DNA of 64,000 nucleotides, taken from NCBI GenBank assembly GCA_043804695.1, contig JAZDIV010000043.1:9027-73026 (forward strand). Reading direction: 5' to 3'. Shown one piece after another: positions 6,564-59,022 of the stretch (positions are counted from its first letter, which is position 1; every line of letters starts with the position of its first letter). A program made the position numbers and the translations under genes. The DNA comes from PVC group bacterium (GTDB taxonomy: Bacteria; Auribacterota; Erginobacteria; Erginobacterales; Erginobacteraceae). The notes under the pieces are model-generated. The model did not search any database. It was not told the DNA's origin and was given only the letters and a program-made list of their open reading frames with translations.

Positions 6564-8621
6564 CTACTCGAAGGGCAGCGGCTTCTCCGGCTCGAAGGTG
6601 AAGACGTGCCAAAGCTTCTTCCCCACCCCGTAATCCTGCCGGACAGAATCATTCACCAGTACCGGGGTAAGAGGGAGCGTGCTGTCCCAGATTACATAAC
6701 GGATGTCATTTTCGCGAATCAAGCGAGGTAGATATCCAGGATCATTTTCGGCCTGGAGATGGTCTATAAAAACGATCTTCCTTCTTCCCAGTGCCTTTCC
6801 CTGGGACAGGTGCCCGAAGATGAGATGGCGCTGGTTCTTCTCCCCGATCGCCACCCCGACCGAGTCATCCCCCGCCATGATCATTTCCATGATGGTCCCG
6901 TTCAGGTCGTCCCAGTAGTAGCCGGACGGATACGGCGAGCGGGCGGCCCGAAGCACCCGGAGGGGGCAGATACCGCCAACCTCCTTCCCCCGGAACGTGT
7001 CGAGGAAAGAGACGTGAAGGCGGAGACTGGCGATCGCTTCCCTCCCCGCCAGGAGGCAAACCGCAGCGAACCAGGCATACCCGGCAAACCGCTTCCAGCT
7101 GTTCTTCCCCGCCGATGCGGCCATCCGTCCCGTCACCACGGCCAGGCACGGTAATCCGAGGCCGGCCAGCCAGATGGTGTAGCGGGCCATGTGGTTATGA
7201 TGGCGGGGCATGGCGAAGAACATCACCAGGCAGAGAAAGAAAAGGTCGGGGAGGTAGGCGATCCCCCGGGTCTCCGGCCTTTTCCGGTGCACCACGCATA
7301 TATAGAGAAGCCAGAGGACAGCCGGGATGCTCAACAGCCAGGCAAATCCCAGACCTCCCCATCGGGAGTCGTAGACCAGGACCTCGGGATCGTTGAACCG
7401 GAAGCAGCCGAGCCAGTTGGAGAGCACCCGTTCCGCCTGGGACCAGCCTTCGGTCCCCTCCCGGTATGGGGGCCGGAATTGGGTCGCGGCATTGACGCCG
7501 GGGAAGAGTTGCCGACCCGCAAACGTTACCTCTACCGGATAGAACGGGTTCCCGGTGCGTATCCAGTTCCGCCCCGCCCAGCCGCCGCCCAACCCAAGGC
7601 CGATCAGAATCACGATAACGATAAAGAGCAGGCCGCGGCGAAGGCCGGGGGGGATACCGGACCGGTTCCCGGTTTCTTTCCGGGCCTGATGCCGCGCCAG
7701 AAAAAACCGGACGAGAAGAACCGCTCCCCCGGCCGGGACCAGAAATAGACCGGGGCCCTTGGAGCCGGCCGCCAGACCAAGGGCGAGGCCGAGGCCGGCC
7801 GCTAATCTCCAGGGGATTTTTCCCCTGTCGATCCGTTTCACCGTCCCCAGGAGCAGCGCGAAGAATGCCAGGTAACAGGCCGCGGAACCGGTATCGACCA
7901 TCGCGGTCAGGGACTGGGCGATATTGATGGGAAGATATAAAAACAAGCACCCGGCTGCCAGGGCGAAACCGGACCGGGCGCCCAGGGTCAGGGAGATACC
8001 GGTTATCGCCAGAGCGCCCAGGGGGAGGAAGAGCAGGTTGACACCGTTGAGGAGCCGGCTGCACCCGGTCGCCAGCAGGAAAACAAACTGCACTACCTCC
8101 ACTCCTTTGGGATAACCGTTCCAGGCGAAGGCGCCGACCGGCCCCCAGTGGGGGGAGCCGCCGGTCTCTATCCAGTGAACGCCGCCTTTTTGGAGCCAAA
8201 AGTGAAGTGTAGGGGTATGGTAGTAATTGCCGTCGTAAGAGAAGTCGGGAAGCGCGTAGGCGAGAACCCAGAGCAGAAGATAGAGGGCCAGCGTGACATA
8301 GAAAAACCCGGTCGCGAAAGGACCCGGCGGATCGGGTTTTACGTTATTCCGGCCGCGGCGGACGCTTCTCCGGTACAGCCACCCGGCCAGTGCCGCGAAA
8401 ATAATGAAGACAAAAGCTAACGGTCGAGAGACGGTGATCGAGAAAAGGCTCGCGGCCAGGAGAAGAGCCGTCAACAGGCCGTAGAAGAGGGAAAGACCGG
8501 CCAGCAGGTCAAGAGTCCCCCGCTCACTCCCCGCCAGCAGGCGGGGAGGAGAAAAATTGAATTCGGTGTATTCTATACCCCTCCGCTTCATCATATTTCT
8601 CTTCAGTCTCTTCCCTCCCAT
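6564..8621 (-). CDS. Polytopic membrane protein, putative GT-C-fold glycosyltransferase (family A, copy 1)
   Basis: 685 aa with more than 10 hydrophobic segments. It is a paralog of 16350..18362, sharing PDxxxDG...YHxPTLHFW, WNGYxKGVE, SRLLNGxNL and AMPxxHNHxARYxIWL. The layout (acidic first-loop motif, soluble C-terminal domain) is ArnT/PMT-like. Confidence 0.55.
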   Translation of the reverse strand: MGGKRLKRNMMKRRGIEYTEFNFSPPRLLAGSERGTLDLLAGLSLFYGLLTALLLAASLFSITVSRPLAFVFIIFAALAGWLYRRSVRRGRNNVKPDPPGPFATGFFYVTLALYLLLWVLAYALPDFSYDGNYYHTPTLHFWLQKGGVHWIETGGSPHWGPVGAFAWNGYPKGVEVVQFVFLLATGCSRLLNGVNLLFLPLGALAITGISLTLGARSGFALAAGCLFLYLPINIAQSLTAMVDTGSAACYLAFFALLLGTVKRIDRGKIPWRLAAGLGLALGLAAGSKGPGLFLVPAGGAVLLVRFFLARHQARKETGNRSGIPPGLRRGLLFIVIVILIGLGLGGGWAGRNWIRTGNPFYPVEVTFAGRQLFPGVNAATQFRPPYREGTEGWSQAERVLSNWLGCFRFNDPEVLVYDSRWGGLGFAWLLSIPAVLWLLYICVVHRKRPETRGIAYLPDLFFLCLVMFFAMPRHHNHMARYTIWLAGLGLPCLAVVTGRMAASAGKNSWKRFAGYAWFAAVCLLAGREAIASLRLHVSFLDTFRGKEVGGICPLRVLRAARSPYPSGYYWDDLNGTIMEMIMAGDDSVGVAIGEKNQRHLIFGHLSQGKALGRRKIVFIDHLQAENDPGYLPRLIRENDIRYVIWDSTLPLTPVLVNDSVRQDYGVGKKLWHVFTFEPEKPLPFE

Positions 8622-9178: not shown

Positions 9179-10117
9179 ATGAAAACGCCATCCAGGGGCC
9201 TGAACGGTGACGAACGCTGCCCGGTCTGCGATTCTAAAATGGTGCGGCTTCTCTACATGGGCATTGACAAGGTGGCATCGAGATACGGCTCGGACACCCG
9301 GTTTAGAGTTCGCTTGAACAAATGCAAATCGTGCGGAATGCTCTTTCTCGGGAAAGCCGATTATGACCCGGAACGGATCCATAAAGCGTACTGGAAAATG
9401 CTCACGGAAAATTTATCCGATGATTATTCAGTCCCCACGCAACACCGGAAGTTATTACCGAAGCTGGTAAACGACTACCGGAAAACAAATCGGCTTTTCG
9501 AGATCGGCTGCGGAGACGCTACTCTTTTACGCACATTCCAGGCATCCGGGTGGGAGGTGGAAGGGATCGATATTTCGGAGCAGGCAAGCGCTCTCGCCTG
9601 GGATAAATATGGACTGAAGGTACTGTGCGGACAGCTTGATGAAAAAACAGCCCGGCAACTGGGAGACCATTCATTCGATGTCGTGGTTATGTGGGGCCTG
9701 ATTGAACATCTCCCTGACCCGCGGAAGATGCTGCAGCTATCGCGGTTGCTATTGAGGAAGGGGGGCGCTCTTATTATCTACACCACGAATGCCAAAAGCA
9801 TATTCTATCGCCTGGCCCGTATCTCTTATTATTTGTCACTGAAACAATTTTCTTTTCTCATGGAGCGGGTTATTATCGCGATGCATTATCTGTATTTTTC
9901 GAGAGAAACGATGCGCTATTTCCTTCAGAGCGGTGATCTCAAAGTAAGAGAGATCATTATGACGGACATCGATCTGGATTTCATCTTTAAGGCACACGGT
10001 CATCTCTGGTGGTCTAACCGGTTCTTTCTGGTCCTGACCCATATTGTTCAACAAATCGGGACTCTGGGCAACATGAGCAGTCATATGATAGCCCTGGCGG
10101 AGGCAAGTTCAACCTGA
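9179..10117 (+). CDS. SAM-dependent methyltransferase with N-terminal Cx2C...Cx2C zinc ribbon
   Basis: 312 aa. Motifs are CPVCDS...CKSCG, then LFEIGCGDATLL and VVVMWGLIEHLPDP. Confidence 0.85.
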   Translation: MKTPSRGLNGDERCPVCDSKMVRLLYMGIDKVASRYGSDTRFRVRLNKCKSCGMLFLGKADYDPERIHKAYWKMLTENLSDDYSVPTQHRKLLPKLVNDYRKTNRLFEIGCGDATLLRTFQASGWEVEGIDISEQASALAWDKYGLKVLCGQLDEKTARQLGDHSFDVVVMWGLIEHLPDPRKMLQLSRLLLRKGGALIIYTTNAKSIFYRLARISYYLSLKQFSFLMERVIIAMHYLYFSRETMRYFLQSGDLKVREIIMTDIDLDFIFKAHGHLWWSNRFFLVLTHIVQQIGTLGNMSSHMIALAEASST

Positions 10118-10152
10118 TCGGCAACTGCCTATTCTACAATCATCGCTTCTTT

Positions 10153-11046
10153 ATGACGGCACCAAATGCAATCTGTCCGATCTGCAGTTCCCAGATCGTC
10201 TCTCCCTATTACCGGAGGAACCGGGAATTCCCGGTAAAAAGCTTCACTCCTTCGGTCAGTGACTTCGGGATTTTTTACAACCTCCACCGTTGTGACGGCT
10301 GTCACACGGTTTTCGCCTCTGAGATGCCATCCGCACAGGAACTGGCAAACGTTTACCAATCCTCCCACCCTGATGGATATCTTCTGGAAAAAAAGAACCG
10401 GCAGCGGAATTTCCAGCGCCTGATCAAGACGTTAGCCAAATACGTAGACCATAATAAGCAGGTAAAGTTGCTGGATGTGGGGGCTTCCATCGGGCTGTTT
10501 CTGGAGACGGTCCATGTCATATTCCCCCACTGGGAACTCCTCGGAGTCGAGGCAAGCTCAACGGCCACTGAAATGGCCGCGCGGCGGTACGGGATCAAAC
10601 TCATCCAGGGGATGTTCGAAACCATCGACCTCTTGCCGGATAATCAGGACATCATCACCATGCTGGATCTGATCGAACACGTCCGCTCGCCGCTCGAAGT
10701 AATCTGCCAGGCAAACCGGCTCCTAAAATCCGGGGGGATTCTAGTGATCAGCACCCCCAACATCGAAAGTTGGACGTCACGTCTCTTCCGGAGCCACTGG
10801 TGGGGCTTCCGGTGCATGCACACGCTTTATTTTTCGCCCTTGAGCATGAAACAGATGCTTGCCAAAGGGGGATTCCGGGTAATTACGATGCGAGGCCTGA
10901 TCCGTTTATTCACTCTCCGGTACTGTCTCCGCCACCTGGGATGGCCCATCCAGGGGCCGTCCATCAGCATCCCTTTTCCTCTTTCCCTGGGAGACATGCT
11001 GGTGATCGCCCGCAAGGAGAGCTCGGTCTTCCCTCAAACAGTCTGA
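10153..11046 (+). CDS. SAM-dependent methyltransferase with N-terminal Cx2C...Cx2C zinc ribbon (paralog of 9179..10117)
   Basis: 297 aa. Motifs are CPICSS...CDGCH, then LLDVGASIGLFLE and ITMLDLIEHVRSP. Its stop lies 4 nt before the next start. Confidence 0.85.
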   Translation: MTAPNAICPICSSQIVSPYYRRNREFPVKSFTPSVSDFGIFYNLHRCDGCHTVFASEMPSAQELANVYQSSHPDGYLLEKKNRQRNFQRLIKTLAKYVDHNKQVKLLDVGASIGLFLETVHVIFPHWELLGVEASSTATEMAARRYGIKLIQGMFETIDLLPDNQDIITMLDLIEHVRSPLEVICQANRLLKSGGILVISTPNIESWTSRLFRSHWWGFRCMHTLYFSPLSMKQMLAKGGFRVITMRGLIRLFTLRYCLRHLGWPIQGPSISIPFPLSLGDMLVIARKESSVFPQTV

Positions 11047-11049
11047 TCC

Positions 11050-12549
11050 ATGAATACGATCCGTTTTCAACGATTCACCGCCAGGATAGATAATTATTTC
11101 TACCAGGTAGTGTTTGCTATCTCCTTCCTCTATGTCCTGACCCTAATCTCAAATTATGATATCAACTGGACCCATCCGGAAGTGGCAAAAATCCAGATCC
11201 CCGGGGTGGTAAAAAATGGGACAGCAATTGTCCCGGGGGATTTATTGAGGGGGTTTGACGTTTTAAGTTTCGAATACGGTGGACGGTCCCGCTTCGTTTC
11301 CTATTTCTTCCAGACGTTCAACATCAAGATCCGTCTCCTGCTGCTCCGGTTCATCCCCCCACACCCCAGTTTTTCACTCACCTGGATATTAACCCTGATT
11401 CTCTGCCCGATCCTCTTCTTCAAACTCATCCATGACCTGAGCGGCGACCGCACTACCGCGTGGGCCGGCGCATCCCTGTTCCTGCTTTCCACGGGAACGT
11501 TATCCGGAATAACCATGTTTTTTCACCCGGCGAAACCACTGGCCCTTTTTTTCACTCTTTTATGCTGCTACCTGGGTTCCAGACTCAGCCAGTATGCGCA
11601 ACGCGAGGAGTATTTCTCGAAAAGATATATCCTGCTTCTGATCATCCTGCTCGGCACTATGTTCGCAGCCTGTTTTACAGACGAGGCGGCCTGGTACATC
11701 TTCATCTGCGTACCGATCCTGGCTCCCGGGATGTTCCGGAACAAGCGGTGGGGACTGTTGACAATCGGGCTCTGCTTTTCGATGTTTATCATATTTTTTC
11801 TCTTCGTTACCTACCTGGTACCGATCATTACGAAACAGCTTTTCGGACAGAATTCTTTCAACTTCTGGCGGATGGCTTTGATCAAGGGAGACAGGTCGGT
11901 GTGGGATAATTACAGGTTAACAAACACATTTATCAACGCCTGGTATATTATTATAAGCCAGCTGGTGCCGCCCGGGAAATTTTTCAGCCACAACATACCC
12001 ATCAGAACTCTCTATTTATTCGTGCTCTCGACATACCTGGTTTGCGCCTTCATTGGATTATCCTCCGATAGAAAGAAAACAGTGCTGCGAGGGTTGGTCG
12101 CCCTGGTGCTCTTTTTCATCTTTCAATCGCTGATCCTGGCGAAAAGGGGGAAAGGGCTCATTGATAGTTCTTTTTACTACGGGAACTTGACCTCCATCTT
12201 CTTAATCCTGCCGCTGGCAATACTGCTTTCGGCGGGAAAAGAGCCTTTAAAAACTCTCAATAAAATTGTCCTCATAACCCTCCTCTTAATCTATTCTTAT
12301 AACTTCACGGGTATCAATTATCGCTGGATGCGGAATCATGAAGGACAACGGGGCTATGGTTATCGAAAATACTTTCCCGAAGAAGCGAAAAAGATGGGAA
12401 GGAATAAATTAACTTATCCCCTGGTAAAAATGGCCTGGGAGAAACGCCATGACCGGGAAGCTCTGGAGGAGATGAAGCCCCTCTTCCCTCTGAAAGCCCA
12501 CTGGCTCTTCCTCGAACTGAACTGTGTCTATAATCCCGGAGATGATTAA
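11050..12549 (+). CDS. Polytopic membrane protein of unknown function, possibly GT-C-like (family B, copy 1)
   Basis: 499 aa. It is a paralog of the N-terminal 480 aa of 56965..59022, sharing WxHPE, DLLRGFD, R[ST]RF[VL]SY, SL[ST]W[IV] and MFFHPxKPL. It is visibly AT-richer than the neighbouring family A and C genes. Confidence 0.5.
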   Translation: MNTIRFQRFTARIDNYFYQVVFAISFLYVLTLISNYDINWTHPEVAKIQIPGVVKNGTAIVPGDLLRGFDVLSFEYGGRSRFVSYFFQTFNIKIRLLLLRFIPPHPSFSLTWILTLILCPILFFKLIHDLSGDRTTAWAGASLFLLSTGTLSGITMFFHPAKPLALFFTLLCCYLGSRLSQYAQREEYFSKRYILLLIILLGTMFAACFTDEAAWYIFICVPILAPGMFRNKRWGLLTIGLCFSMFIIFFLFVTYLVPIITKQLFGQNSFNFWRMALIKGDRSVWDNYRLTNTFINAWYIIISQLVPPGKFFSHNIPIRTLYLFVLSTYLVCAFIGLSSDRKKTVLRGLVALVLFFIFQSLILAKRGKGLIDSSFYYGNLTSIFLILPLAILLSAGKEPLKTLNKIVLITLLLIYSYNFTGINYRWMRNHEGQRGYGYRKYFPEEAKKMGRNKLTYPLVKMAWEKRHDREALEEMKPLFPLKAHWLFLELNCVYNPGDD

Positions 12550-12770
12550 TCAAGGGAGATGCGGAGGGCGAAGGGAGAACACCAGCCAGGATTCAGTAGC
12601 CGGGCCATTACCCTGCCTGCCTGATCGAACGGATCACCGGTTCCCGGAAGAGATAAAAAAATTCTCTTCGCCAGCAGGTGGGGCATGGGCTCTAAAAAGC
12701 AACCGATTGTTTTTACGAATACATGTCTTATTCGCAAAATGTGTCACAACGAAATAACAATACTTACAAT

Positions 12771-12817
12771 CACGAAGAACACCCCCGTAGGGCAACCGTA
12801 CGGGGGTGATCTTCGTG
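12771..12817. terminator. 19-bp-stem hairpin built from inverted CACGAAG units between convergent genes
   Basis: The arm cacgaagaacacccccgta (12771..12789) pairs with tacgggggtgatcttcgtg (12799..12817) with one mismatch and a 9-nt loop. Outer gaaataac/gttatttc arms extend the palindrome. Confidence 0.6.
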
Positions 12818-12871
12818 GTGAATAATTTCGTTATTTCTAATAAAGTTTTTAAAAAATTTTTAGAGTAAGGT

Positions 12872-14464
12872 CTAATTATCCGAACTAAGACTTCCCGCGC
12901 GGTCCCAGTATCGAGATGGGATATTCCTTTGCGGAAGAACGGACGGATCCATCTGATTTTTAAGCCGGTAATTAAGCGTCTCCCCGTCCGCCACCCAGGC
13001 GGCATCCCCGATAAAGGGCGTGAAGCTGAATATCTCTTCCCGGGAGAAAATCCACTGGTAGGTTCCCCGGAAGAACCGGCCCATATCTTCGTTCCAGCAG
13101 AGAGACGGAAGATAGGACGGGATCCCGTCCGGCATCGCCAGCGGTTGCTGCGGGGAAATCTCTCCCCGCTTGATCCCCCCCTGGATCCGCCCCAGGAGCG
13201 TCTTCAGGGGGGTCATCTCAGTATCAATCAGGTTCACTGCCCCCCGGACCGCGATGACATTGAAGACAACGGCCAGGATCAGCAATAAACTGATCCCCCT
13301 TCTCACCGGACCGGACCGGACCAGTCGATCGACGGCCAACGCGCCCATCAGGACCAGGAAGGCGTTGGCGATATACTGGTAACGGAACTGGAGGAAGAGA
13401 TCAGTGAAGTTTTCGGTGGTGGAACGGCCGAGCGCGAGGACGAAGAAACCGGCCGCGTACAGGAAGAAAAGCAATCCCAGGCCGGCGGGGATCTTCCGGC
13501 GCGGTCTCCGGAAGGAAGCAATCAGGACGAATAGGACAAGCGAGACCGACCCGGTCGCGGTGACGACCGTCCGCAGGAGGCCCGGGCTCCAGGCGGCGGC
13601 CGGGCCGCCCATCTCGATGTTATGGGTCACCCGCAGAGGCAAGGCCAAGAAAGGAAGCAGGTTGATCAAAATCCCGTTATAGAGGAGGTTGAAGAAGACC
13701 GAGCAGAGGCTGAGGAAGACGTCCCCGGCGCCGGGAGCGGAGAGGGAGCCTGATGTGTGGGGAGCGGTCCGGGTGACGAGAAAGACCAGCAGATACATCC
13801 AGTAAACCGCTGCGGTCATCAGCACCGCCGGGCGGCGGCGACCGGCAATCCGTCTCATTGAAATCAGGAGGAGACCGAGCGGCCAGAGAAGAAAGAGTTC
13901 CAGACAGAGGAGAGAGAAGAGAAACAGGAAGCCGATGGGAACGAGGAGCAGCTTGTTTCCGCCGTCACTGTACCGGAGATAAATGATGATCCCGAAAAGA
14001 AAGGCAGAGAAACTGAGCGGCATCGTGACATGAAAGGTCCAGGTGACAATATCGGCATGAGTGAAGAGAACGGCGAAGAGGGAGAGAAAGAGAGCCAGGG
14101 TACCCGTTCCGATGCCAAGCCGCTTTCCCAGCAGATAAAGAAGAACAATGCTCAGGAAATAACCGGCGAAGTTCACCAGGTGATAGGGGAGAAAATCCGC
14201 TCCGAAAAGGCGGTGTTCCAGGTAGAGGACCGGGTGGGCGACGGGGCGGAAGGTGCCGTCCCGCCAGGGATCGTGGTTAACGACAAATGAGAAACCAGGG
14301 GGACCGGGAGAGGCGTCAACCAGGTGGAAGGCAAAGAGCGCCGACCACCAGTCGCTCCGGGGAGGGTTCGTAAAGGAGGGGGCGAAGATGATGATGAGAA
14401 CGGCCAGAAGAAGCGCGAAGTACCCCGCGATCTTCTCTCGGGCCATATATTCATCAGCTCTCAT
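12872..14464 (-). CDS. Polytopic membrane protein, putative GT-C-fold glycosyltransferase (family C, copy 1)
   Basis: 530 aa. Motifs are FTNPPRSDWW, NHDPWRDGTFRPV...LYLEHRLFG (PMT/TMTC-like yRPL..l...FG pattern) and C-terminal LCWNEDM...GTYQWIFS. It is a paralog of 14836..16353 and 45147..46895. Confidence 0.55.
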   Translation of the reverse strand: MRADEYMAREKIAGYFALLLAVLIIIFAPSFTNPPRSDWWSALFAFHLVDASPGPPGFSFVVNHDPWRDGTFRPVAHPVLYLEHRLFGADFLPYHLVNFAGYFLSIVLLYLLGKRLGIGTGTLALFLSLFAVLFTHADIVTWTFHVTMPLSFSAFLFGIIIYLRYSDGGNKLLLVPIGFLFLFSLLCLELFLLWPLGLLLISMRRIAGRRRPAVLMTAAVYWMYLLVFLVTRTAPHTSGSLSAPGAGDVFLSLCSVFFNLLYNGILINLLPFLALPLRVTHNIEMGGPAAAWSPGLLRTVVTATGSVSLVLFVLIASFRRPRRKIPAGLGLLFFLYAAGFFVLALGRSTTENFTDLFLQFRYQYIANAFLVLMGALAVDRLVRSGPVRRGISLLLILAVVFNVIAVRGAVNLIDTEMTPLKTLLGRIQGGIKRGEISPQQPLAMPDGIPSYLPSLCWNEDMGRFFRGTYQWIFSREEIFSFTPFIGDAAWVADGETLNYRLKNQMDPSVLPQRNIPSRYWDRAGSLSSDN

Positions 14465-49943: not shown

Positions 49944-51798
49944 GCAAAAAGCAGCCTTATTACTTTTTGGACTGCTGTTGGGGCTCATACTCCTGGAAAT
50001 AGGTCTGCGGGGCGCCGGATTTGTTCTCCTTTACCTCCAGGAACGAGATAACCGACAATCCCTGCAAGATAAGAGCGAATATGTCATCCTCTGTCTAGGG
50101 GAATCAACAACGGCAGTTGGAGGAAAAGACTCTTACCCGAAACAGCTCGATAACATCCTGAATGATAGAGGCGTGGGGAAAAAGGTTACCGTAGTAAATA
50201 AAGGGGTTATCGGTACCAATACCACTGCAATCGTTTCCCGATTGGCGGATTGTCTTAATACATACCAACCCGACATGGTGATTACCATGATGGGTATCAA
50301 TGAAGGGTTGGGAACAACCAACATTGAAAATCGCGCAGATGCGGACACTGGCTTCTTTCTCAGGAATTTTCGCGTGTATAAGCTGCTTCGACTCCTCTGG
50401 GACCGTGTTTTTTTCAACATTAAGCTGGCAGAAACGGCCCGGCAAAGAAAAAAGGAAGTGGAAGAAATCCTTACGCTCGCTGAAACGGCGATCATCGGAA
50501 ATGAATTGAGCCAGACTCGAACAAACTTTGACATTTTTTCAGAAGAAGTCGCGGCGATTATTGAAAAAGGGGACCGGTATTTTGACCAGGATAAATGGGA
50601 GGAAGCAGTCCCCTTCTACCGGAAAGCGCTCGAGTCAAACCCGGAAAATACTGCAATCCTCAGCAGGCTGGCAGCCTGCCTTCGAGAGCTGCAGCGGTTT
50701 AGAGAAGACAGGGAAATACTCCGGCAAGTGCTGTTGGTCGATCCTCAAAATCCGGACGTTTATATAGAACTGGGAAACTCATTTCGGAACCAGCAAGGAT
50801 GGGAAGCAGCCGAGGTGTTTTATCGGAAAGCCCTCGCATTATCCCCGGACTTTGCCCAGGCTTATCTGGAATGGGGTCGATCATACAAGATGCAGGGAGA
50901 TAGGAATAGAGCGGTGGAAATGTTCACAGAAGCAATGGAGCGCGACCCGGAAGATCTTTCCATCTATATGCAGTTAGCACACTATCATGATACGCTTGGC
51001 AACTATGACGAAGCCGAAAAAACGTTTAAAAAGGCCCTGGAACGCGATCCAAATTTTGCTGGTTGCTACGCTCAATTGGGACGTTTTTACGCTTGGCGGG
51101 GAAGAAATAAAGAAGCCGAAATAATGTGCAAAAAAGCGATCGAGCTCCACCCGGAGAATGAACTGGCCTATGCTGAATTAGGAGATATATACACAGCCCG
51201 AGGATGGCTTGAGAAGGCCGAAGAAATGTATCAAAAAGCGCTGGACATTAATCCTCTGAACAACATTGCCTTCCGTATTCTGGTCTTATGGTGCATCCGG
51301 GACGGGAGGTTTGAAAAGGCGGGAAAGTTGTGCAAAAAAATCCTTGAGATTAATCCTCAAGATGATAGGGCTCTCGGTATGCTGGCTATCTGTTATCAGT
51401 CACAGGGGAAAACAGAGCTGGCTGAACAATATTTCAAGAAAGCACATGGCTTGAGAGCACAATGTGTTAATTCAACCATCGCCGGAAATTATCAAAAAGC
51501 AAGAAAGCTGGTCACGGAAAGAGGAGTACAACTGGTCTGCGTGCAGTATCCGATGCGCAATGTGGAGAATCTAAAACGGATCTTCCCGGAACCGGAAGGG
51601 ATCATTTTCGTTGACAATGAAGATGTTTTCAAAAGTGCGCTGCAGGAGGGGAGTTACGGAGATTATTTTACCGATTGCTTCGCCGGCGATTTCGGGCACT
51701 GTACACCCGCCGGCAACCATCTTTTAGCCGAAAATATTGCCGATACCATCCTTCCCGCCATTGAACAAAAGAAGGAGCCGGGCCCCGGGAGAAATTAA
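49909..51798 (+). CDS. Membrane-anchored SGNH/GDSL-type hydrolase interrupted by a ~330-aa TPR array
   Basis: Block I is ILCLGESTT, block II VVNKGVIGTNT and block III ITMMGINEG, all near the N-terminus. Block V DFGHCTPAGNHLLAENI lies at the extreme C-terminus. Multiple TPRs fall between (e.g. AVPFYRKALESNPEN, AEVFYRKALALSPDF). The track start is TTG 49873; ATG 49909 and GTG 49927 are alternatives. Confidence 0.6.
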   Translation: MNLPSLVKTTVKQKAALLLFGLLLGLILLEIGLRGAGFVLLYLQERDNRQSLQDKSEYVILCLGESTTAVGGKDSYPKQLDNILNDRGVGKKVTVVNKGVIGTNTTAIVSRLADCLNTYQPDMVITMMGINEGLGTTNIENRADADTGFFLRNFRVYKLLRLLWDRVFFNIKLAETARQRKKEVEEILTLAETAIIGNELSQTRTNFDIFSEEVAAIIEKGDRYFDQDKWEEAVPFYRKALESNPENTAILSRLAACLRELQRFREDREILRQVLLVDPQNPDVYIELGNSFRNQQGWEAAEVFYRKALALSPDFAQAYLEWGRSYKMQGDRNRAVEMFTEAMERDPEDLSIYMQLAHYHDTLGNYDEAEKTFKKALERDPNFAGCYAQLGRFYAWRGRNKEAEIMCKKAIELHPENELAYAELGDIYTARGWLEKAEEMYQKALDINPLNNIAFRILVLWCIRDGRFEKAGKLCKKILEINPQDDRALGMLAICYQSQGKTELAEQYFKKAHGLRAQCVNSTIAGNYQKARKLVTERGVQLVCVQYPMRNVENLKRIFPEPEGIIFVDNEDVFKSALQEGSYGDYFTDCFAGDFGHCTPAGNHLLAENIADTILPAIEQKKEPGPGRN

Positions 51799-51820: not shown

Positions 51821-54388
51821 CTACGGGCGTTGCTTTCCGATACCCCGCTGCCTGTCCCGGAAACCCTTCCTGGCCCCCCACCCCAGTAAACCCAGGATTA
51901 CCATGCCCCAGGAGATCGCGGAGATTACCGCTCCGATCTTCCAGGAAGGTGGACTGAAAACCAGATTAATATGGTGCGTTCCTTCTTCAAGCCAGACCCC
52001 TCTCTGGAGATAGTTTACCCGATAGAGGGGGACCGGCTCTCCATCTACCCGCGCTTCCCACCCGGGATACCAGACTTCGGTTAGGACCAGCATGGCCGGC
52101 CGGGTTATCTCCACATCGATTTCCATCCGGTTCGGGTTGCTGAAATTCAGGCGGGTGATGGGGTTCGCGGCCTGGAGTTCGTTGAAGTGCTTGATGGATG
52201 CGGGATCCCGATTAAAAGAAGGGTAATCAGTAATCAGTGACTGGTAATCAGTTTGCCCCCCCCGATCACTGATTACTGATAACCGATTACTGCCCTCTGA
52301 TAACTGATTACTCTCATCAATAAATACTCCCTTCCTCAAGTCCCCCTTCACCAGTTCCTCCATCGCCTCATCTTCCGAACATCTGACAACCCGGTCCAGG
52401 GTAAAGGCCCGGGGAAGAACTCCGGGATTGCGATGGAGATAAAAATCCGGTCTTGTTTCGATCTTTTCGGTCCTGCCGCCCGGAAAGGGGGTAGCGGGCC
52501 GGGAATCGAGAAGGCAGCCCACGGACATATTGCTTAAGAAATCCGGATGGATCGGGCGGGGAAACTCCCAGTAAAGCGGCCAGTCAACCGGGCGCCCATA
52601 CGTTTCTTCGAACGCCTTCCTGAACCGCCTTTCCAGCGGCTTCATATCGTAGCCCATAAAAGCGAAGCTGCCTTCCAGGTAGGCAAAGTTATCGTGGAAA
52701 GGCTGGTCGGTCGCCCAGCGGAGCGAAGAGTCGTCTCGGAGCGCGGCCAGCGTCCCCAGCACTCTTTGCACCATCGGGTGAGACCGGGGGCCAAGACTCC
52801 GGCGGTGCTCGGGCCGGGGATCATGAAAGCGAAAGGTGCAGAAGTAAAATGCCGCGAACGTGAAGATCGATGCCTCCAAAATAACCAGCGCGGCCACCAC
52901 AATTGCCCGGGGCATTCCCCGCAAACCCCGCCAAGTTAAAACAAGAATACAACCGGCCGCGACAAAGTAGAGGACCGGGCCTTTGATAAACCATTCCAGG
53001 TTGTCCCGGCGGATGATTTCATTCAAGCCGGGCAAAGAAAAACTCCCGCTCAACCAGCCCCGGACCCCGTCGTAACCGAAGAGCGCCAGAAGGCTGGAGA
53101 TAAAAGCCAGAGCGAGGTACCCGCAAATAAGTTTTCGGGGCCAGCCCGTTGAAGCCCATTTGCCCGAGATCAGGTATTCCATCCCCAGACCAGCCAGCCA
53201 AGAGGTGGCGATCACCTGCAACAGCCGGTAGCGGATGGGGAAGGGAAACAGCGAGAGGATCGGAACCCCTTTATAGAAAAGATAATAAAACGGGGCATGC
53301 CTTCCCAGCATCAACAGCACGGAAAATATCCAGAGCAAACATGCAAATATTGCCCAGAATCGCAGTCTCCGGTGTCGGGCGCGTTTTACGACCAGGAGAA
53401 CGCCGGCCAGGGCGAGAAAGGTGAGCAGCAGCCCCCCACCCAGGTTGGCGTCCCAGAACCGGACCCCCTGGGTAATCGAGTCCACCCAGTTGCGGTTATT
53501 GAGACCGCTTACGGTCCCGAAGAGATCGGGGATGAAGATGGTCGCCAAGTAGATCGGGGGCATCGAGCCGTCTCCGCCGGTCATCGCCTCATAGGTCTCC
53601 TCCAGATGCAGCTCGGTATGAGCCGACCCGTCGAGGGCCGAAACCCAGAAGACAGCGGAGAGGGCCAACCCGAGCAATACCGCTCCTCCCAGCTGGAGTG
53701 GAGCCCGGAAGAAACGAAGTTTTTTCTTCCCCCTGAGCCAGCGAAGCCCCAGCCCCAGGGCAAGCAACCCGCCCAGGAGGAGACCGTAGCCGACGTGGGG
53801 CGGCTGGGCAGCCAGCAGCATCAGGGCGAAGATACAGCCGCCGGCGGCGACCCTGCCGAAGCCGGCCCCTCGGTCCATCAGGACCACCGCCAGCAGGAAC
53901 CAGGGGAGCCAGGCCTGGACGTTCACCACCGGGGGCCAGACATAAGAGTAGGAGAAGGCGGGGCTGAAAAGATACACCCAGGCGGCGATGAAAGCGGGGA
54001 AAGGACGCAGCCGAATCCCGAGGCGGGCCAGGGCATACATCCCGATGGCGGCCAGGGCGTAATGAAGAAGCAGCGGGATCAGACTGATTACGAGATAGGC
54101 CTGGTCGAGATCATCAAGGCGGCTGAGGAGGAGAAAGGGCCAGAGCGGCAGGTAGTAAGTATCGGCATAGAAGCGGGCATAAAATGGCTTGGCCCCGCAC
54201 CAGGTTTCACTATCCCAGAGCGGGATCACACCGCTCTTCATATGGCGGGCCAGGTAATACTGCCAGGGGAAGACGTCCATCGCCACGTCATCGTGAAATA
54301 TCCCCCGCCAGCCGATCAGGGCGGGCAGAAAGAGCGCCCATACGGCCAGGAAGAGGAAAATTACGGCTATGAGATCAGCTTTCTTCAT
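51821..54388 (-). CDS. YfhO-like GT-C membrane glycosyltransferase (family Y, intact copy)
   Basis: 855 aa and polytopic. The N-terminal region GIFHDDVAMDVFPWQYYLARHMKSGVIPLWDSETWCGAKPFYA is YfhO-like. The C-terminal domain ends with a TM anchor, and the RVNYLQRGVW motif is shared with 54495..56972. Confidence 0.65.
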   Translation of the reverse strand: MKKADLIAVIFLFLAVWALFLPALIGWRGIFHDDVAMDVFPWQYYLARHMKSGVIPLWDSETWCGAKPFYARFYADTYYLPLWPFLLLSRLDDLDQAYLVISLIPLLLHYALAAIGMYALARLGIRLRPFPAFIAAWVYLFSPAFSYSYVWPPVVNVQAWLPWFLLAVVLMDRGAGFGRVAAGGCIFALMLLAAQPPHVGYGLLLGGLLALGLGLRWLRGKKKLRFFRAPLQLGGAVLLGLALSAVFWVSALDGSAHTELHLEETYEAMTGGDGSMPPIYLATIFIPDLFGTVSGLNNRNWVDSITQGVRFWDANLGGGLLLTFLALAGVLLVVKRARHRRLRFWAIFACLLWIFSVLLMLGRHAPFYYLFYKGVPILSLFPFPIRYRLLQVIATSWLAGLGMEYLISGKWASTGWPRKLICGYLALAFISSLLALFGYDGVRGWLSGSFSLPGLNEIIRRDNLEWFIKGPVLYFVAAGCILVLTWRGLRGMPRAIVVAALVILEASIFTFAAFYFCTFRFHDPRPEHRRSLGPRSHPMVQRVLGTLAALRDDSSLRWATDQPFHDNFAYLEGSFAFMGYDMKPLERRFRKAFEETYGRPVDWPLYWEFPRPIHPDFLSNMSVGCLLDSRPATPFPGGRTEKIETRPDFYLHRNPGVLPRAFTLDRVVRCSEDEAMEELVKGDLRKGVFIDESNQLSEGSNRLSVISDRGGQTDYQSLITDYPSFNRDPASIKHFNELQAANPITRLNFSNPNRMEIDVEITRPAMLVLTEVWYPGWEARVDGEPVPLYRVNYLQRGVWLEEGTHHINLVFSPPSWKIGAVISAISWGMVILGLLGWGARKGFRDRQRGIGKQRP

Positions 54389-54494: not shown

Positions 54495-56972
54495 TCATTG
54501 CCGGCGGCGAGAACGGAACGACAGCCGGATCAGCCCGAGCAGGGCCAGGAGTCCCGCGCCGGTCATCGCCAGCCCCGGTCCGATTGAAGACGGCCGGAAC
54601 GCCATCTCGATCCGGCACTCCCCGGGCGGGCACCAGATCCCCCTCTGGAGGTAATTTACCCGGTGAACAGGGACCGGTTCCCCGTTCAAGGTCGCCCGCC
54701 AATCCGGATGGTAAACATCGGTCATCACCAGCATAGCCGGAGTCGAACTTTCCGCGTCGATCACTACCCGGTTGGGGTTGGAGAGATCGAGAGCGGTCAC
54801 CCTGTTCTTTTCCTGCAGGCGTAAAAAATTCTCTTCCCCATCTGCTTCGTTCCCATCCCTTGGCACCGGATAGCTATCCGGCGAGGGGCGGGCGGCCCAG
54901 GTTTCCGGGTCGCACCAACCGATACTCCGAAGATCGGAATTGAGGAGGGCTTCTCTCTGTTCCTCTTCGGCGGCGGGGCGCCAGCGATCCTGGAAATAAA
55001 TCCGGGGCAACGCACCGATTGCTTCGCAACCGAAATCGCCGTTGATCATTTTTCTATATTCCAAATGGGGATAATTCAATCGGGCGGACGACAGGAAATA
55101 ACGCGCGCTCATATTCAGCCAGAACCGCGAACCCCATTTTCTGACCTTGAGTTCGTAAGGAAACCCCTCCGTCAACTCCTCGACGATCTCCTGGAAACGA
55201 GGGTCAAGAGGCTTGATATCAAACCCCAGCATCGAGAGCGAGTCGTCCCGCCAGGCCAGGTTATCGAAGTAGGACCGGTAGTAGAGCCTCCGGTAGAGGC
55301 CGCCTTCCCCTTCCCCCTCCGGTTGCCAGTTGAGAATTTTTTGGTAAATCGGGTCTTCGTCCGGTCCGATATATCGCTCGGCGTACATATCCCGGTAGCG
55401 GTGGTTGAGGACCCGGTTGTGATAAAACGCCCGGTAGGAGAAGAAGATCAGTTCCCCCGCCGCCGTTACGATGAGAAGGGTTCGCAGGTACTTTCCGCCC
55501 CTGACCCCGGCGATCAGAAGCAGCTAGCACGCCCCCAGAATCAGGTATAAGACCGGCCCGCGGATAAACCAGGGCCAATCCCCGAGCGCCGTCAATTGCC
55601 GGAATCCGGGCGAGAATAAATTACCCCTGATATCGGAATAAGGGGATACGAGAGCCAGACCGGCCAGCAGGAGAACGAAAAGCAGATAGATAACCGCCGG
55701 GCGGATCAACCGCGGCGGGCGATAGCGAGCCATAAGTTCGACCGAGACCCCGAGCAGGCCGGCCAGGGCGAAACACTCGATGCTCCGGAAGCGAACCGGA
55801 TAAGGCATCCGGAGAACCGGGATCAGAACCCGGAAAAAGCCGTAAGCCGGGGTGTATCTTCCCAGGATCACCAGAACCCCGAAGATGAAGATGGCGAAAA
55901 AGCCCCACCAGTACTGCCGGAGAGAGCGGCCCCTTTCGTCGCCTCCCTTTCGCCCCGGGAAGCTGAGAAAGCCGGCGAAAACCAGGAATAAAAGGAACAG
56001 ACCTCCCAGCAGATTAGCGTCGTTCAGGGTGAGGTTCATCCGGTGAGCCGCCCCCCAGGTATGGTGGCTGGTCACCCCCCCGAAGTAATCGGGGAGGAAG
56101 AGGGTGACCAGGTAAAGGGGGGGCATACTCTGGGCCAGCCTCGACAGCTCCTCGACCGCCTCTCCCGTCTCCACCCCCAGCATCCGAAGCCCGGAGATCA
56201 TATTCCCCCAGTAAACCCCGGCCAGGAGAAAACCGATCCCGAAGAAGGCGATCCCTCCCCCGGCGACGCGCCAGACTACCTTCCAATCCTTCCTCTTCAG
56301 GCCCGGGATAACCAGAGTCAGACCGAAGAGAGCGGTAATGAAGAGCAGGTGCGCCAATACCGGGACATCGCCGGACGGGGAGACCAGGGCGAAGGCCCCC
56401 GCACCCAGGATCAGCCATCGGTACCGGCCGCTTTTCGCGAACCGGATCAGGCAGAGACAGAAGAGCGGGAGCCAGGCCTGGATCAGGACTTCCGGGGGGC
56501 AGAGCGAGAAATAGATCATCGCCGGGCTGAGTGTGTAAGCGAGGGAGAAGAGGAACGATCCCGGCCGGCCGAGTTCGAGTCCGCGCCGGCAGAAGAGATA
56601 GGAAAACCAGGCGGAGAGGAGATACGAAACCGTCAGGGGGAGCTTTATCAGCCAGAGATAATCGCGGACCGGATCGAGACCTCCCAGAATAAGAAAAATC
56701 CAGTTAATGGGAGCGAGCGCACTCTGGAAAGGATGGGCGTAAAAAGGGCTCGCCCCCGCCGTCAGGTGCGGGTTCCACCAGGGGATAATCCCCCGGACCA
56801 GGGCCCGGGAGAGAAACGACTGCTGGGGGTAGAAAAAAAACGCTATATCATCGAAGAAAAACTTCTCCCAGCCGGCCAGCAGGGGCAGGAAAAAGAGAGT
56901 TAGCAGCATCGTTAGGACAACAAAAGGAGGCCAGCGGCAAGAGATCTTTTGTTGTCCTTGGTCATTATTCAT
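54495..56972 (-). pseudogene. YfhO-like GT-C gene (family Y, second copy) interrupted by a single in-frame TAG at 55526..55524
   Basis: ORFs 55524..56972 and 54495..55388 are in the same frame (2478 nt = 826 codons). My translation across the gap is open except for that one TAG: ...GPVLYLILGAC*LLLIAGVRGGKYLRTLLIVTAAGELIFF... This aligns to GPVLYFVAAGCILVLTWRGLRG... of the 855-aa paralog. Confidence 0.7.
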
Positions 56973-59022
56973 AAAAACCTAATTCGGAGAGCGCCAGGAA
57001 GTAATCCCGACTGTTGTCCGGATTGTTTACCAGGTAAAGCTTATAGAATCGATACGATCGATCCGGAGTAATGTTCCAATAAATCCACTCGTTGAGATTC
57101 GGATTGCGCGGACCTTCCAGGAGAGATACCGGCTCCCAATTGAGTCGATCCCGGCTTCCCAGTAGCAGTCCTCTTTTTAGAAATGCCTGAGGATTGTGGG
57201 GGGCGGGCAAGGCCGCCACGGTACGAACTCGGACAGCCCCTTCCCGCCCCAGATCGACTTCCAGCCAGGACGGGCGGGTAACAAAATCCTCCAAGACCAG
57301 GATATGCCAGATTGTGTCATAATTATCATCGATCAGATTCTCGGCTCCCAGACCCGGCCCGTTCTGATCGGAGACTCTCAGACAAACATCGCGAGCCGAC
57401 AGAAGATTACCGGGTTTTTGGTCAGGAATTATTTGATCAGCTGCCTGAATCGGTTGGGCTGTCCCGACCTCCTTTTCCAGCCGATCAATGGTCCGGAACA
57501 GCCAGGAATATTCCATTTCCGCAAAGAACCAGTAGGAGCGGCGGGGATAATTTTTCCTTAATTCCTCCAATACCCCCGGCTGATCCCGATTCTTCCAGAT
57601 GTCCATAACCATCTGTCGGGTCAGGTCGATCCCATCATTCTCCATCCTGGCGGTATGTGGATATAGCACTCCGATAGGGCGTCCGTGATCAAGATACCAG
57701 GAACGGCCGAGCACGATAAAATTATACCCGCTGAGCAGAAGAAGGAATATAAAAATAACCAGGCCGATCGGCTGATACCGTTTTTTCCGGGAAGGAAGAA
57801 TCAAGGCGACCAATATTACCCAGAATACCGGGAAAAGCGTTCCGTAATAATAGCTTGATCGAACTGTTTTCCCTTTCTTGGTGAGAAGCATCGTTTCAAA
57901 GATAAAGAATAAAATGATCACCAGAAATACCCGGACAATTATTTTTTTCCTGGCTGAAGAAGCCCGGGAAAACATCAGCAGGAAATACCCCCCAAAAAAG
58001 GTGGGAATCAAAACGCTCAACGCGGATATTTCCAGATCCCCCGATGAGATTCTGATACTGATATAGTCAAAAAGAATGTTCCGGGCGTTAATCAGAATAT
58101 TTAGCGGGACAAACTTTGCCCACACTCCGTATTCAGGATCGCCAAACGGATGGAGCTCGCACTGCCAGAAATTGAAATTTCCGAAACCCAAATTTTCGAT
58201 TATTCGGGGAGCAGGCCAGGTCACAAAAAGAACAAAAATTACCGGTATCAAGCAGTAAGAGAAAATCCTCAACCATCTCGGCGGCCGGGAAAACAATAGA
58301 GCGGGGAATAAAACCGGTACCGCGATAAAAATGAACCAGAAGGATTCATCAAGAAAGAATGACATGAAAATACTTGATACCAGCAATAAGAACCACCCGG
58401 TATTTTTTCCCTCCCGATCATTCCCCCGGCAGGAAACGATAACAGAAGCGCAATAAAGGCAAAAAATAGCGGCAAAACGGGAGAGAGGTTTCCCGGGATG
58501 AAAAAACATCACGATCCCGGAAAGAAAACCGGTGGATAAATAATAAAGTGATATCCCCATCCAGGCGGAAATCCTGTTCCGGCTGAGATTATAGATGAGT
58601 TTCCAGAGGAAAATAGGGCTAAGCAATAGGCTGAAAACCCAGGTTAGAGACAAACTAAGGAGCGGCGGAAAATTCTGAAAAAAACAGTTTCTGAATTTCA
58701 GATCCACAACCGTCCATACATAAGATAGGAAACGGGTACGCATGGCCCCGTCAAAACTCCAGAAATCAAAGCCCCGCAAAAGATCTTCGGCAACCAGGTC
58801 GTGCCGGTTACCGAGCGCGATGGGGAGGTGGCGGCTGACCGTCTCCGGGTGAACCCAGGTCAGATTTGGCTCAGAGAGACAATAAACCACAAACAGCACC
58901 GAGAGGATAAAGATGAGAATATAAATTCCGGGGTGGGCGACGCCAGGATATTTTTTATCGAATATGTCTTTACCGCCGGTACCGGCGATATTGGTATGAG
59001 ATAGATTTGATTTCACGACCAA
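56965..59022 (-). CDS. Polytopic membrane protein (family B, copy 2) fused to a C-terminal F5/8 type C (discoidin/CBM32-like) domain
   Basis: 685 aa with a TTG or GTG start. The N-terminal 480 aa are paralogous to 11050..12549. The C-terminus AENLIDDNYDTIWH...PSWLEVDLGREGAVRVRTV...LLLGSRDRLNWEPV...YRFYKLYL...LSELGFYE fits the discoidin-domain pattern. Confidence 0.65.
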   Translation of the reverse strand: MVVKSNLSHTNIAGTGGKDIFDKKYPGVAHPGIYILIFILSVLFVVYCLSEPNLTWVHPETVSRHLPIALGNRHDLVAEDLLRGFDFWSFDGAMRTRFLSYVWTVVDLKFRNCFFQNFPPLLSLSLTWVFSLLLSPIFLWKLIYNLSRNRISAWMGISLYYLSTGFLSGIVMFFHPGKPLSRFAAIFCLYCASVIVSCRGNDREGKNTGWFLLLVSSIFMSFFLDESFWFIFIAVPVLFPALLFSRPPRWLRIFSYCLIPVIFVLFVTWPAPRIIENLGFGNFNFWQCELHPFGDPEYGVWAKFVPLNILINARNILFDYISIRISSGDLEISALSVLIPTFFGGYFLLMFSRASSARKKIIVRVFLVIILFFIFETMLLTKKGKTVRSSYYYGTLFPVFWVILVALILPSRKKRYQPIGLVIFIFLLLLSGYNFIVLGRSWYLDHGRPIGVLYPHTARMENDGIDLTRQMVMDIWKNRDQPGVLEELRKNYPRRSYWFFAEMEYSWLFRTIDRLEKEVGTAQPIQAADQIIPDQKPGNLLSARDVCLRVSDQNGPGLGAENLIDDNYDTIWHILVLEDFVTRPSWLEVDLGREGAVRVRTVAALPAPHNPQAFLKRGLLLGSRDRLNWEPVSLLEGPRNPNLNEWIYWNITPDRSYRFYKLYLVNNPDNSRDYFLALSELGFYE

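Follow-up and report, generated by a model that had tools for sequence, protein, structure and literature searches.

The GT-C-type genes of the locus

The window analysed here, a 64,000-nucleotide stretch of contig JAZDIV010000043.1 from an uncultured PVC-group bacterium whose closest named relatives are Candidatus (Ca.) Auribacterota, shows a surface-sugar gene cluster of about 55 kb. This cluster is a surface-glycan super-locus, which combines a Wzx/Wzy-type pathway (a WecA-like initiating enzyme, three glycosyltransferases of family GT4, a Wzx, two Wzy_C proteins and a Wzz-like protein) with nine genes of the GT-C glycosyltransferase type, one of them disrupted, distributed in four families: A (A1 and A2), B (B1 and B2), C (C1, C2 and C3) and the YfhO-like Y (Y1 and Y2). 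Related loci, numbered here with the prefix L, were gathered by exact look-ups of homologs and one family C profile scan of species-representative genomes (38 loci), and were scanned with hidden Markov models (HMMs) built for the four families, for the small glycosyltransferases of family GT2 and for a lipoprotein named U.

In an all-against-all blastp of the window proteins, A1 and A2 show 37% identity (E=8e-105), B1 and B2 36% (E=2e-79), the three family C proteins 34-41% (E about 1e-90; 41% between C1 and C2, and 34-36% between C3 and either of them) and Y1 and Y2 30-32%. These identities bear out the four paralogous families proposed by an earlier sequence-only reading, whose quoted motifs are all present verbatim. 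Since no family detects another in HMM-versus-sequence searches, they are treated as four. Profile comparison with hhalign gives nothing for A against B or C, and aligns C with B over 321 columns (E=3.7e-4, probability 36%), a possible remote relationship between the latter two.

Hydropathy plots show seven to 11 peaks in each of the nine proteins, those of Y2 being spread over its two open reading frames (ORFs) as 9+1. Families B, C and Y have an N-terminal transmembrane (TM) segment followed by a loop of 60-100 residues. The earlier description, polytopic proteins with an acidic motif in the first outside loop, holds for the many TM segments and the conserved acidic residues, but in family A the long loop comes after the third TM segment. 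The family C loop contains helices at 37-51 and 76-87, with D38 conserved in 32 of 34 members and D65 in 33 of 34; the family B loop contains helices at 43-56 and 82-98, with D64 in 13 of 14 members and D70 and E44 as further conserved acidic residues; in the family A loop D126, D130 and E175 are invariant or nearly so. Family Y shows F[HF]DD directly after TM1 and a closing C-terminal TM segment. All paralogs have invariant acidic and basic residues in the first periplasmic loop; since these candidate catalytic residues are kept, all the paralogs are probably active.

All nine genes are found where the sequence-only reading placed them, but Y2 consists of two ORFs, so that the tally is eight intact genes and one disrupted gene. 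An in-frame TAG at 55524-55526 cuts Y2 into 482 and 297 aa. The 83%-identical ortholog (L028:936-3461) has Trp (TGG) at this codon, and TAG is in ordinary use in the window, where it ends 14 of the 43 genes. What remains is either one G>A nonsense mutation or an error of consensus or assembly in this metagenome-assembled genome (MAG), and not recoding; reassignment of the stop codon was ruled out by the same count. If the TAG is real, the mutation is of very recent date. Another disrupted GT-C copy occurs in the same lineage: a family C paralog of a related MAG is broken at L002:11568-13140 (= L013) into ORFs of 270 and 264 aa. The start codon of C2 may be a GTG at 16362.

The window contains only two small GT2 genes of the polyprenyl-phosphate type, GT2-1 and GT2-2, as had been counted before, and neither Pfam and NCBIfam scans nor the intergenic gaps of the window show a further polyprenyl-phosphate-sugar synthase. 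Their products are about 240-255 aa long and lack C-terminal TM helices, with one weak internal hydropathy peak in GT2-2. The best solved match of both, across the whole catalytic domain, is the dolichyl-phosphate-mannose synthase (DPMS) of Pyrococcus furiosus (5mlz), with ArnC next in rank. The NCBIfam matches of GT2-2 include PpgS, and all NCBIfam matches of the two proteins lie below the equivalog cut-offs (for GT2-1 against ArnC, 79 bits with a cut-off of 529). By family resemblance, both are probably polyprenyl-phosphate glycosyltransferases. GT2-2 is the window's closest relative of the L006 GT2 that is translationally coupled to a family B gene.

GT2-1 overlaps a gene encoding a DegT aminotransferase, which is followed by a gene encoding a B12-binding radical SAM (rSAM) protein, and a fusion of DegT with a small GT2 (629 aa; L006/L007:6334-8223) mirrors the overlapping pair of the window (40513-42406). 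Together, these arrangements point to an amino-sugar donor. The window shows three paralogous B12-binding rSAM genes (42708-44123, 59039-60457 and 63180-64000), each near one small GT2, and rSAM/SPASM genes flank the corresponding GT2 in L002, L008 and L009. The B12-binding rSAM proteins may C-methylate or rearrange the donor sugar.

Family relationships and the GT-C fold

Profile searches link only family Y to a named family above threshold. Y1 passes the gathering score of YfhO (PF09586) through its C-terminal 80 residues, the C-terminal fragment of Y2 stays below it with 22.3 bits, a Y-like neighbour in L006 bears PF09586, and family Y shows weak matches to PgfM1/M2. On this match and the corresponding architecture, family Y is probably a YfhO-like GT-C family. 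In families B and C, the F5/8 type C domain of B2 is the only part that Pfam or NCBIfam recognises.

Families A, B and C are small and unnamed: a word-indexed homology search of 5.8 billion proteins yields 15, 13 and 34 matches, respectively. With family C as the profile, an exhaustive search over clusters at 50% identity matches 117 representatives when the threshold is E<=1e-30 and 4,879 when it is E<=1e-3. Among the more distant matches listed, ten (E 1e-40 to 4e-19) have a TM part without a Pfam model, and several of these ten bear Laminin_G_3 or F5/8C lectin-type domains.

AlphaFold2 (AF2) models of C1 and B1, built from the family alignments, reach a predicted local distance difference test (pLDDT) of 89.9 and 88.4, respectively, and a predicted TM-score (pTM) of 0.90 each. 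Both are predicted to run from TM1 through two loop helices to TM2, with the near-invariant Asp within the loop. When the models were compared by Foldseek with the PDB, nearly all of the top 25-30 matches were GT-C enzymes, with probability of about 1.0, E values of 4e-5 to 1e-2 and TM-scores of 0.38-0.45: STT3, PglB, AglB, ArnT, Pmt4, Pmt1/2, DPY19, AftB/AftD, EmbB, PimE, ALG3 and GPI-MT-I. The models thus support a GT-C fold for families B and C, which the sequence-only reading had assigned from topology and motifs for A as well.

It is very improbable that the polytopic proteins are transporters or non-catalytic scaffolds whose likeness to GT-Cs is only topological. Such a reading could appeal to the TM-scores of only about 0.4 and to the lack of any significant sequence match to a solved GT-C, but the major facilitator superfamily and other transporters reach a Foldseek probability of at most about 0.5 and TM-scores of about 0.1, against the probability of 1.0 for some 25-30 GT-C structures. 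The invariant acidic and basic residues of the first loop, the conserved linkage to polyprenyl-phosphate GT2 genes described below and the lectin-domain fusions, which are typical of GT-Cs (PMC11127046), also speak against it. For the modelled proteins, a transporter fold was ruled out by the Foldseek probabilities. Identity with the oligosaccharyltransferases of GT66 was likewise rejected, the WWD(Y/W)G motif being absent from all nine proteins.

For family A the assignment rests on recurrent matches to PMT and PMT_2 below threshold. Eight of the 15 members match PMT at E<=0.01 (best 6e-6) and one matches PMT_2, A2 scores 16 bits against the NCBIfam ArnT model (cut-off 567), and hhalign aligns the family poorly with four PMT_2 proteins (probability 52%). 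These weak matches suggest that family A may be a separate family, distantly related to PMT.

Conserved modules and neighbouring genes

The nine genes fall into two conserved modules. The first is an operon-like cassette in which the lipoprotein gene U1 is followed by A2, C2, C1 and A1 (U-A-C-C-A). It is present with 1:1 orthologs (56-71% identity) in L001/L012, L004/L005, L010 and L011, that is, in at least four other MAGs, and in part in L029 and L031; in L004 its genes overlap by 4 nt. Orthologs of U1 (56-57% identity) lie immediately upstream of A2 in L001, L004, L010 and L011. U1 and its paralog U2 share the repeat FDxxKIGxDRYR...PPTxxWxxGE...PY...LG. The cassette of the window is interrupted: C1 and A1 are separated by 9179-12549 (+), which contains two methyltransferase genes and B1 and has a GC content of 47-54%, against 59-64% in the flanks. 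As C1 and A1 are contiguous in L001, L004, L010 and L011, this segment looks like an acquired insert into a conserved cassette. Genes encoding a heparinase II/III-like protein (712-2406), a PGA_cap/CapA-like protein (5368-6513) and a fused ADH/GFO oxidoreductase (22872-25010) have counterparts adjoining the cassette in L004/L005 and probably belong to the same pathway.

The second module shows the order B2-Y2-Y1...C3-murB...B12-rSAM-DegT-GT2-1 and is flanked by GT2-2 and more rSAM genes. Between 35 and 59 kb, the window shares its gene order with L028 and L046, and the proteins are 60-93% identical: B2 86%, Y2 83-93%, Y1 80%, arylsulfotransferase (ASST) 60%, TPR/GDSL 63%, C3 60%, murB 62%, B12-rSAM 81%, DegT 87%, GT2-1 80%, Wzz-like 65% and Wzy_C/TPR 74%. 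The murB gene lies 7 nt downstream of C3; in L028 (9881-12562) it directly follows C3, and in L046 (9872-14328) a B-like ORF separates the two, murB still lying just downstream. This adjacency may link C3 to cell-wall synthesis or may be that of a mere operon neighbour. Since L028 lies about 6 kb from the cassette locus L012 on one 375-kb contig (contig_58223), the whole super-locus is collinear in a second MAG.

The linkage of B, C3-type and Y genes to small GT2 genes in related genomes is borne out outside the cassette. Of the 38 family C loci, 18 have a full-length small GT2 at a distance of no more than 10 kb, and so do 13 of the 17 non-cassette loci of at least 12 kb. In L006/L007 the small GT2 overlaps the family B gene by 4 nt, as in translationally coupled genes, and in L008 the two are 50 bp apart. 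Every cassette genome that could be checked also has a GT2 module (L013/L028, L032, L016 and L008). The genomes with family loci belong to the PVC group, Ca. Omnitrophota, Ca. Auribacterota (Euphemobacter and Erginobacter) and Planctomycetia.

Table 1. Genes of the window, with their coordinates and the matches on which each assignment is based.
Feature	Position	Strand	Evidence and remarks
A1, GT-C-like gene of family A (putatively distant PMT-like), last of the U-A-C-C-A cassette	6564-8621	-	Pfam PMT E=6e-4, below gathering score; 59-66%-identical orthologs syntenic in L001/L004
B1, predicted GT-C of family B	11050-12549	+	No Pfam/NCBIfam model; GC 47%
C1, predicted GT-C of family C	12872-14464	-	No Pfam/NCBIfam model; 68-69%-identical orthologs syntenic
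C2, predicted GT-C of family C	14836-16362	-	63-67%-identical orthologs syntenic
A2, GT-C-like gene of family A	16350-18362	-	Weak NCBIfam ArnT match, E=0.003; 63-71%-identical orthologs syntenic
C3, predicted GT-C of family C	45147-46895	-	60-61%-identical orthologs in L028 and L046
Y1, predicted YfhO-like GT-C	51821-54388	-	Pfam YfhO 31.9 bits (gathering score 28.5), C-terminal 80 aa only; FHDD motif after TM1; 68-80%-identical orthologs
Y2, YfhO-like paralog disrupted by in-frame TAG	54495-56972	-	Two ORFs in the same frame
B2, predicted GT-C of family B with C-terminal F5/8 type C (discoidin) domain	56965-59022	-	Pfam F5_F8_type_C at residues 551-666; 86%-identical ortholog fragment in L028
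GT2-1, probable small soluble polyprenyl-phosphate glycosyltransferase (DPMS/ArnC-like)	40513-41229	+	PDB best 5mlz DPMS E=1.4e-27 over residues 4-224, then ArnC; NCBIfam best ArnC 3.4e-22; 80%-identical orthologs syntenic in L028 and L046
GT2-2, probable small polyprenyl-phosphate glycosyltransferase (AglJ/DPMS-like)	61059-61826	+	NCBIfam AglJ E=5e-46, Dol-P-hexose transferase 1.7e-24; PDB 5mlz E=4.7e-20, full domain
U1, conserved lipoprotein, first gene of the cassette	18368-19555	-	395 aa; invariant lipobox Cys26 (GCS); internal two-fold repeat; no Pfam/NCBIfam match
U2, paralog of U1	34040-35275	-	31% identical to U1; lipobox and repeat in common
Truncated initiating transferase, MraY/WecA-type polyprenyl-phosphate N-acetylhexosamine-1-phosphate transferase	1-705	-	Cut by window edge; NAFNxxDGxDGL motif, several hydrophobic segments; weak tblastn match to PF00953 protein of L004
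Wzx-type flippase, MOP superfamily	3734-5038	+	Pfam Polysacc_synt E=5.6e-17; 11 hydropathy peaks
Wzy_C polymerase/ligase-type membrane protein	31442-32806	-	Pfam Wzy_C E=3.9e-16; 64%-identical ortholog in L001
Wzy_C + TPR membrane protein	35374-37542	-	Pfam Wzy_C E=7e-14 plus TPR; 74%-identical ortholog in L028
Wzz/PCP-like protein	37667-39409	-	Pfam Wzz E=1e-4, below gathering score; TM at 17-35 and 548-566, coiled-coil middle; 65%-identical ortholog in L028
Cytoplasmic GT4 glycosyltransferase	21631-22869	-	Pfam Glycos_transf_1 / Glyco_trans_4_4
Two further GT4s	27594-28754 and 30325-31449		Pfam Glycos_transf_1 / Glyco_trans_4_4
SAM methyltransferases	9179-10117 and 10153-11046	+	Pfam Methyltransf_23/11/12; GC 49-54% (flanks 59-64%)
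DegT aminotransferase	41207-42406	+	Pfam; putative donor-sugar tailoring; overlaps GT2-1; 81-89% identity range with B12-rSAM, syntenic in L028/L046
B12-binding rSAM	42708-44123	+	Pfam; putative donor-sugar tailoring; syntenic in L028/L046
B12-binding rSAM, paralog of 42708-44123 (33% identical)	59039-60457	-	Pfam
rSAM/SPASM protein, adjoins GT2-2	61850-62920	+	Pfam; GT2 + rSAM neighbourhood recurs in L002, L008 and L009
murB	44238-45140	-	Directly downstream of C3; NCBIfam MurB equivalog 311 bits (cut-off 259)
Polysaccharide deacetylase, PF01522+DUF3473	19640-20497	-	Pfam
Sugar-type formyltransferase	20501-21283	-	Pfam
Sulfatase	46904-48310	-	Pfam; periplasmic tailoring candidate
ASST	48696-49943	+	Pfam; periplasmic tailoring candidate; syntenic in L028/L046
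GDSL/SGNH + TPR protein	49873-51798	+	Pfam; periplasmic tailoring candidate; syntenic in L028/L046

The remaining genes of the Wzx/Wzy-type pathway are given in Table 1. Pfam scans recover the two Wzy_C proteins, the single Wzx and the single Wzz of the sequence-only reading, the last as a weakly Wzz-like protein; its one initiating transferase is indeed of the MraY/WecA type but is only a truncated gene at the left window edge. The deacetylase and formyltransferase encoded beside the cassette could be Arn-like deformylase and N-formyltransferase partners. ASST genes accompany the GT-C modules, with two in L028, and a sulfatase gene lies beside C3 in the window; in L006 and L008, family B likewise has a sulfatase gene nearby (regions with ASST or sulfatase genes: window 46904-49943, L028:6376-7638 and 12652-14022, L008:3891-5162). 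Their placement suggests that sulfate is added to, or removed from, the same glycan in the periplasm. Two mobile elements are absent from the matching positions of L012 and L028: an IS110-family transposase gene (28839-30011, +) between two GT4 genes, and a gene encoding an IS200-like Y1 transposase fused to a DnaA_C helix-turn-helix (39406-40398, -; GC 42%) between the Wzz-like gene and GT2-1.

A further question is whether the window contains one pathway or several. Two or three independent envelope pathways could lie side by side (for instance exopolysaccharide or O-antigen synthesis, protein O-glycosylation and a murB cell-wall set), each with an ordinary ratio of GT-Cs to donor synthases, and the expansion would then result from the boxing of neighbours. 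In keeping with this, the modules are 70-90 kb apart on contig k141_52326 of a third genome, a third module (C-C-B) lies about 100 kb away on contig_58223, IS110 and IS200-like genes stand at the module borders, the GC content is heterogeneous (47-50% against 59-64%) and murB is embedded in the region. However, the order from B2 to A1 is collinear in the second MAG (L028 and L012), and single modules hold four GT-Cs each (the cassette, and B2, Y2, Y1 and C3) with at most one GT2, so that the many-to-few ratio survives splitting. A set of wholly independent pathways is therefore quite unlikely, although the figure of nine GT-Cs to two synthases is partly a product of how the locus was drawn, joining at least two modules.

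Donor use and comparison with known systems

The reading preferred here, with a probability of roughly 0.6, is extracytoplasmic glycan elaboration in which a few polyprenyl-phosphate-sugar donors are shared by GT-C paralogs that add different linkages or positions, with a logic like that of the mycobacterial Emb, Aft and Mpt enzymes and unlike that of 1:1 seroconversion units of the Gtr type. The two soluble GT2s would load one or two tailored sugars, probably amino sugars and possibly C-methylated or N-formylated, onto polyprenyl phosphate at the cytoplasmic face. Once flipped, these few lipid-linked sugars would be used on the periplasmic side by the GT-C paralogs, each of which would form its own linkage at its own acceptor position on the exported glycan. 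The F5/8 type C domains, the lipoprotein U, the arylsulfotransferase, the sulfatase and the SGNH/TPR protein would act on the same periplasmic substrate, and this combination suggests a periplasmic tailoring workshop.

Several observations weigh against shared-donor elaboration. In four relatives, no small GT2 lies within 10 kb of the U-A-C-C-A cassette, so that the claimed linkage of GT-Cs to GT2s fails for this module and its donor could be something else. The window shows no GtrA/SMR/MATE-type lipid-sugar flippase, nor any multi-TM ORF in an intergenic gap, and its sole MOP-family protein is Wzx. Because the modules are so far apart in the third genome and insertion sequences lie between them here, they may serve different glycans. 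As for the enzymes, A1 scores 19.9 bits against Pfam PMT (cut-off 22.7) and A2 does not match, which leaves family A outside PMT and PMT_2 (PF02366 and PF13231). Searches of PDB sequences with the A, B and C profiles, P0057 and Y1 give nothing relevant, so that no link to solved GT-Cs can be demonstrated at the level of sequence. The Foldseek TM-scores of B1 and C1 are only about 0.4, and the leading matches of both are oligosaccharyltransferases, which use pyrophosphate-linked oligosaccharides.

This last point belongs to an alternative in which families A, B and C, wholly or in part, use undecaprenyl-pyrophosphate-linked oligosaccharides from the WecA/GT4 pathway, as polymerases, ligases or oligosaccharyltransferases with en-bloc transfer to glycan, lipid or protein. 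The GT2s would then not serve them, and the ratio of nine to two would be meaningless. Besides STT3, PglB and AglB at the head of the Foldseek matches of B and C, the position of the cassette next to Wzy_C and GT4 genes, with no small GT2 within 10 kb, and the resemblance of family A to the protein-modifying PMT family fit this alternative. Against it, ArnT, PMT, DPY19, PimE and Aft, all users of phosphate-linked monosaccharides, have comparable Foldseek scores, the WWD(Y/W)G motif is found in none of the nine proteins, and B1, C1 and C2 have little or no C-terminal periplasmic domain. Moreover, family B and C3-type genes are tightly linked, and even translationally coupled, to polyprenyl-phosphate GT2s in other genomes, and the GT2 module accompanies the cassette in every genome where this could be checked. 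Use of pyrophosphate-linked oligosaccharides is accordingly considered unlikely. Compared with the GT66 enzymes themselves, the window proteins share a TM core of the GT-C(A) type and a first loop with a conserved Asp, but lack WWDYG, sequence similarity and, in B1, C1 and C2, the large C-terminal periplasmic domain.

Sharing of a few donors by many GT-Cs is known elsewhere. In the eukaryotic endoplasmic reticulum many ALG, PIG and PMT GT-Cs are supplied by two donor synthases, DPM1 and ALG5, and ALG3, GPI-MT-I, Pmt4 and DPY19 are among the Foldseek matches of the window proteins. The members of that system (ALG3/9/12/6/8/10, PIG-M/V/B/Z, PMTs and DPY19) belong, however, to different sequence families, and their genes are unclustered. 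Three-component systems (GtrA/GtrB/GtrC; CsbB-YfhO, GtlA/GtlB and PgfS-PgfM1/M2; ArnC-ArnT; GT136 pentofuranose) also combine a polyprenyl-phosphate GT2 synthase with a GT-C. The window contains a GtrB/DPM1-like GT2, the GT2 and family B genes of L006/L007 overlap as a classic pair, and family Y is probably YfhO-like, with its weak PgfM1/M2 matches. Unlike those systems, the window has no GtrA/SMR/MATE flippase gene, families A, B and C lie outside the Gtr, ArnT and YfhO families of Pfam and NCBIfam, and the modules have 4 + 4(+1) GT-Cs instead of one each, with 1:1 pairing only for family B in L006/L007 and L008. The DegT, formyltransferase and PF01522 deacetylase genes recall ArnB, ArnA and ArnD as a functional analogy only, since GT2-1 and A2 stay below the equivalog cut-offs of ArnC and ArnT.

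A close parallel in logic is the assembly of arabinan and mannan in mycobacteria and corynebacteria (EmbA/B/C, AftA-D, MptA-C and PimE), in which many paralogous GT-Cs work outside the cytoplasm from one or two polyprenyl-phosphate-monosaccharide donors: decaprenyl-phosphate-arabinofuranose (Araf) and the polyprenyl-phosphate-mannose made by Ppm1, with PpgS and Rv3779 for galactosamine. Some of these GT-Cs bear carbohydrate-binding modules, the small soluble GT2 of the window resembles PpgS over its full length (NCBIfam, E=1.7e-18), and AftD, AftB, PimE and EmbB are among the Foldseek matches of B and C. The differences are that neither B nor C matches the arabinosyltransferase or PMT_2 models of Pfam, that the genes are those of a PVC-group bacterium and lie in a Wzx/Wzy locus, that they are tightly clustered in conserved cassettes (U-A-C-C-A; Y-Y-B/C) and that the donor is probably an amino sugar with rSAM tailoring and not a product of the phosphoribosyl-pyrophosphate-derived Araf route. 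The feeding of many GT-Cs by one donor has precedents in "more elaborate" multi-GT-C three-component systems and in mycobacterial arabinan and mannan synthesis (PMC11127046). In view of these mycobacterial and eukaryotic precedents, the claim of the sequence-only reading that a ratio of nine GT-Cs to two synthases is an undescribed architecture is overstated. No principle is overturned: precedents exist for the GT-C fold, for the kind of donor and for the ratio of many to few.

What appears to be new is more specific: three GT-C-type families without a Pfam or NCBIfam model, novelty being judged against these two libraries; the conserved cassettes, U-A-C-C-A and the tandem Y-Y with B, C and GT2-DegT-B12-rSAM; and the restriction of the families to poorly known phyla of the PVC group. 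In the Auribacterota literature, PMC9324843 makes no mention of glycosyltransferases or glycosylation, and its passages on polysaccharides and sulfatases concern degradation. A further, tentative proposal, held with less confidence than shared-donor elaboration as such, is that A, B and C are three unclassified GT-C families largely limited to PVC-group phyla (Auribacterota, Omnitrophota and Planctomycetia), which would form with U a periplasmic assembly line that builds or heavily branches a glycan from one or two unusual polyprenyl-phosphate-sugars. These would be amino sugars tailored by rSAM enzymes, and the products of the U-A-C-C-A operon might form a hetero-oligomeric complex.

GT-C enzymes are hard to recognise from sequence, and newly characterised GT-C families tend to found new CAZy families, such as GT136 in 2024 (PMC11127046). 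The locus provides three high-confidence candidate families, one of which heads a superfamily of several thousand clusters at 50% identity, and its conserved multi-enzyme cassettes sit in candidate phyla with uncharacterised envelopes. If the logic of many GT-Cs and few donors is true, defined gene sets (U-A-C-C-A; GT2 with family B) would be available for heterologous reconstitution and glyco-engineering, and extracytoplasmic glycan assembly of the mycobacterial type would be commoner than thought. The assembly line, if it exists, would give PVC bacteria a so far undescribed counterpart of mycobacterial arabinan synthesis.

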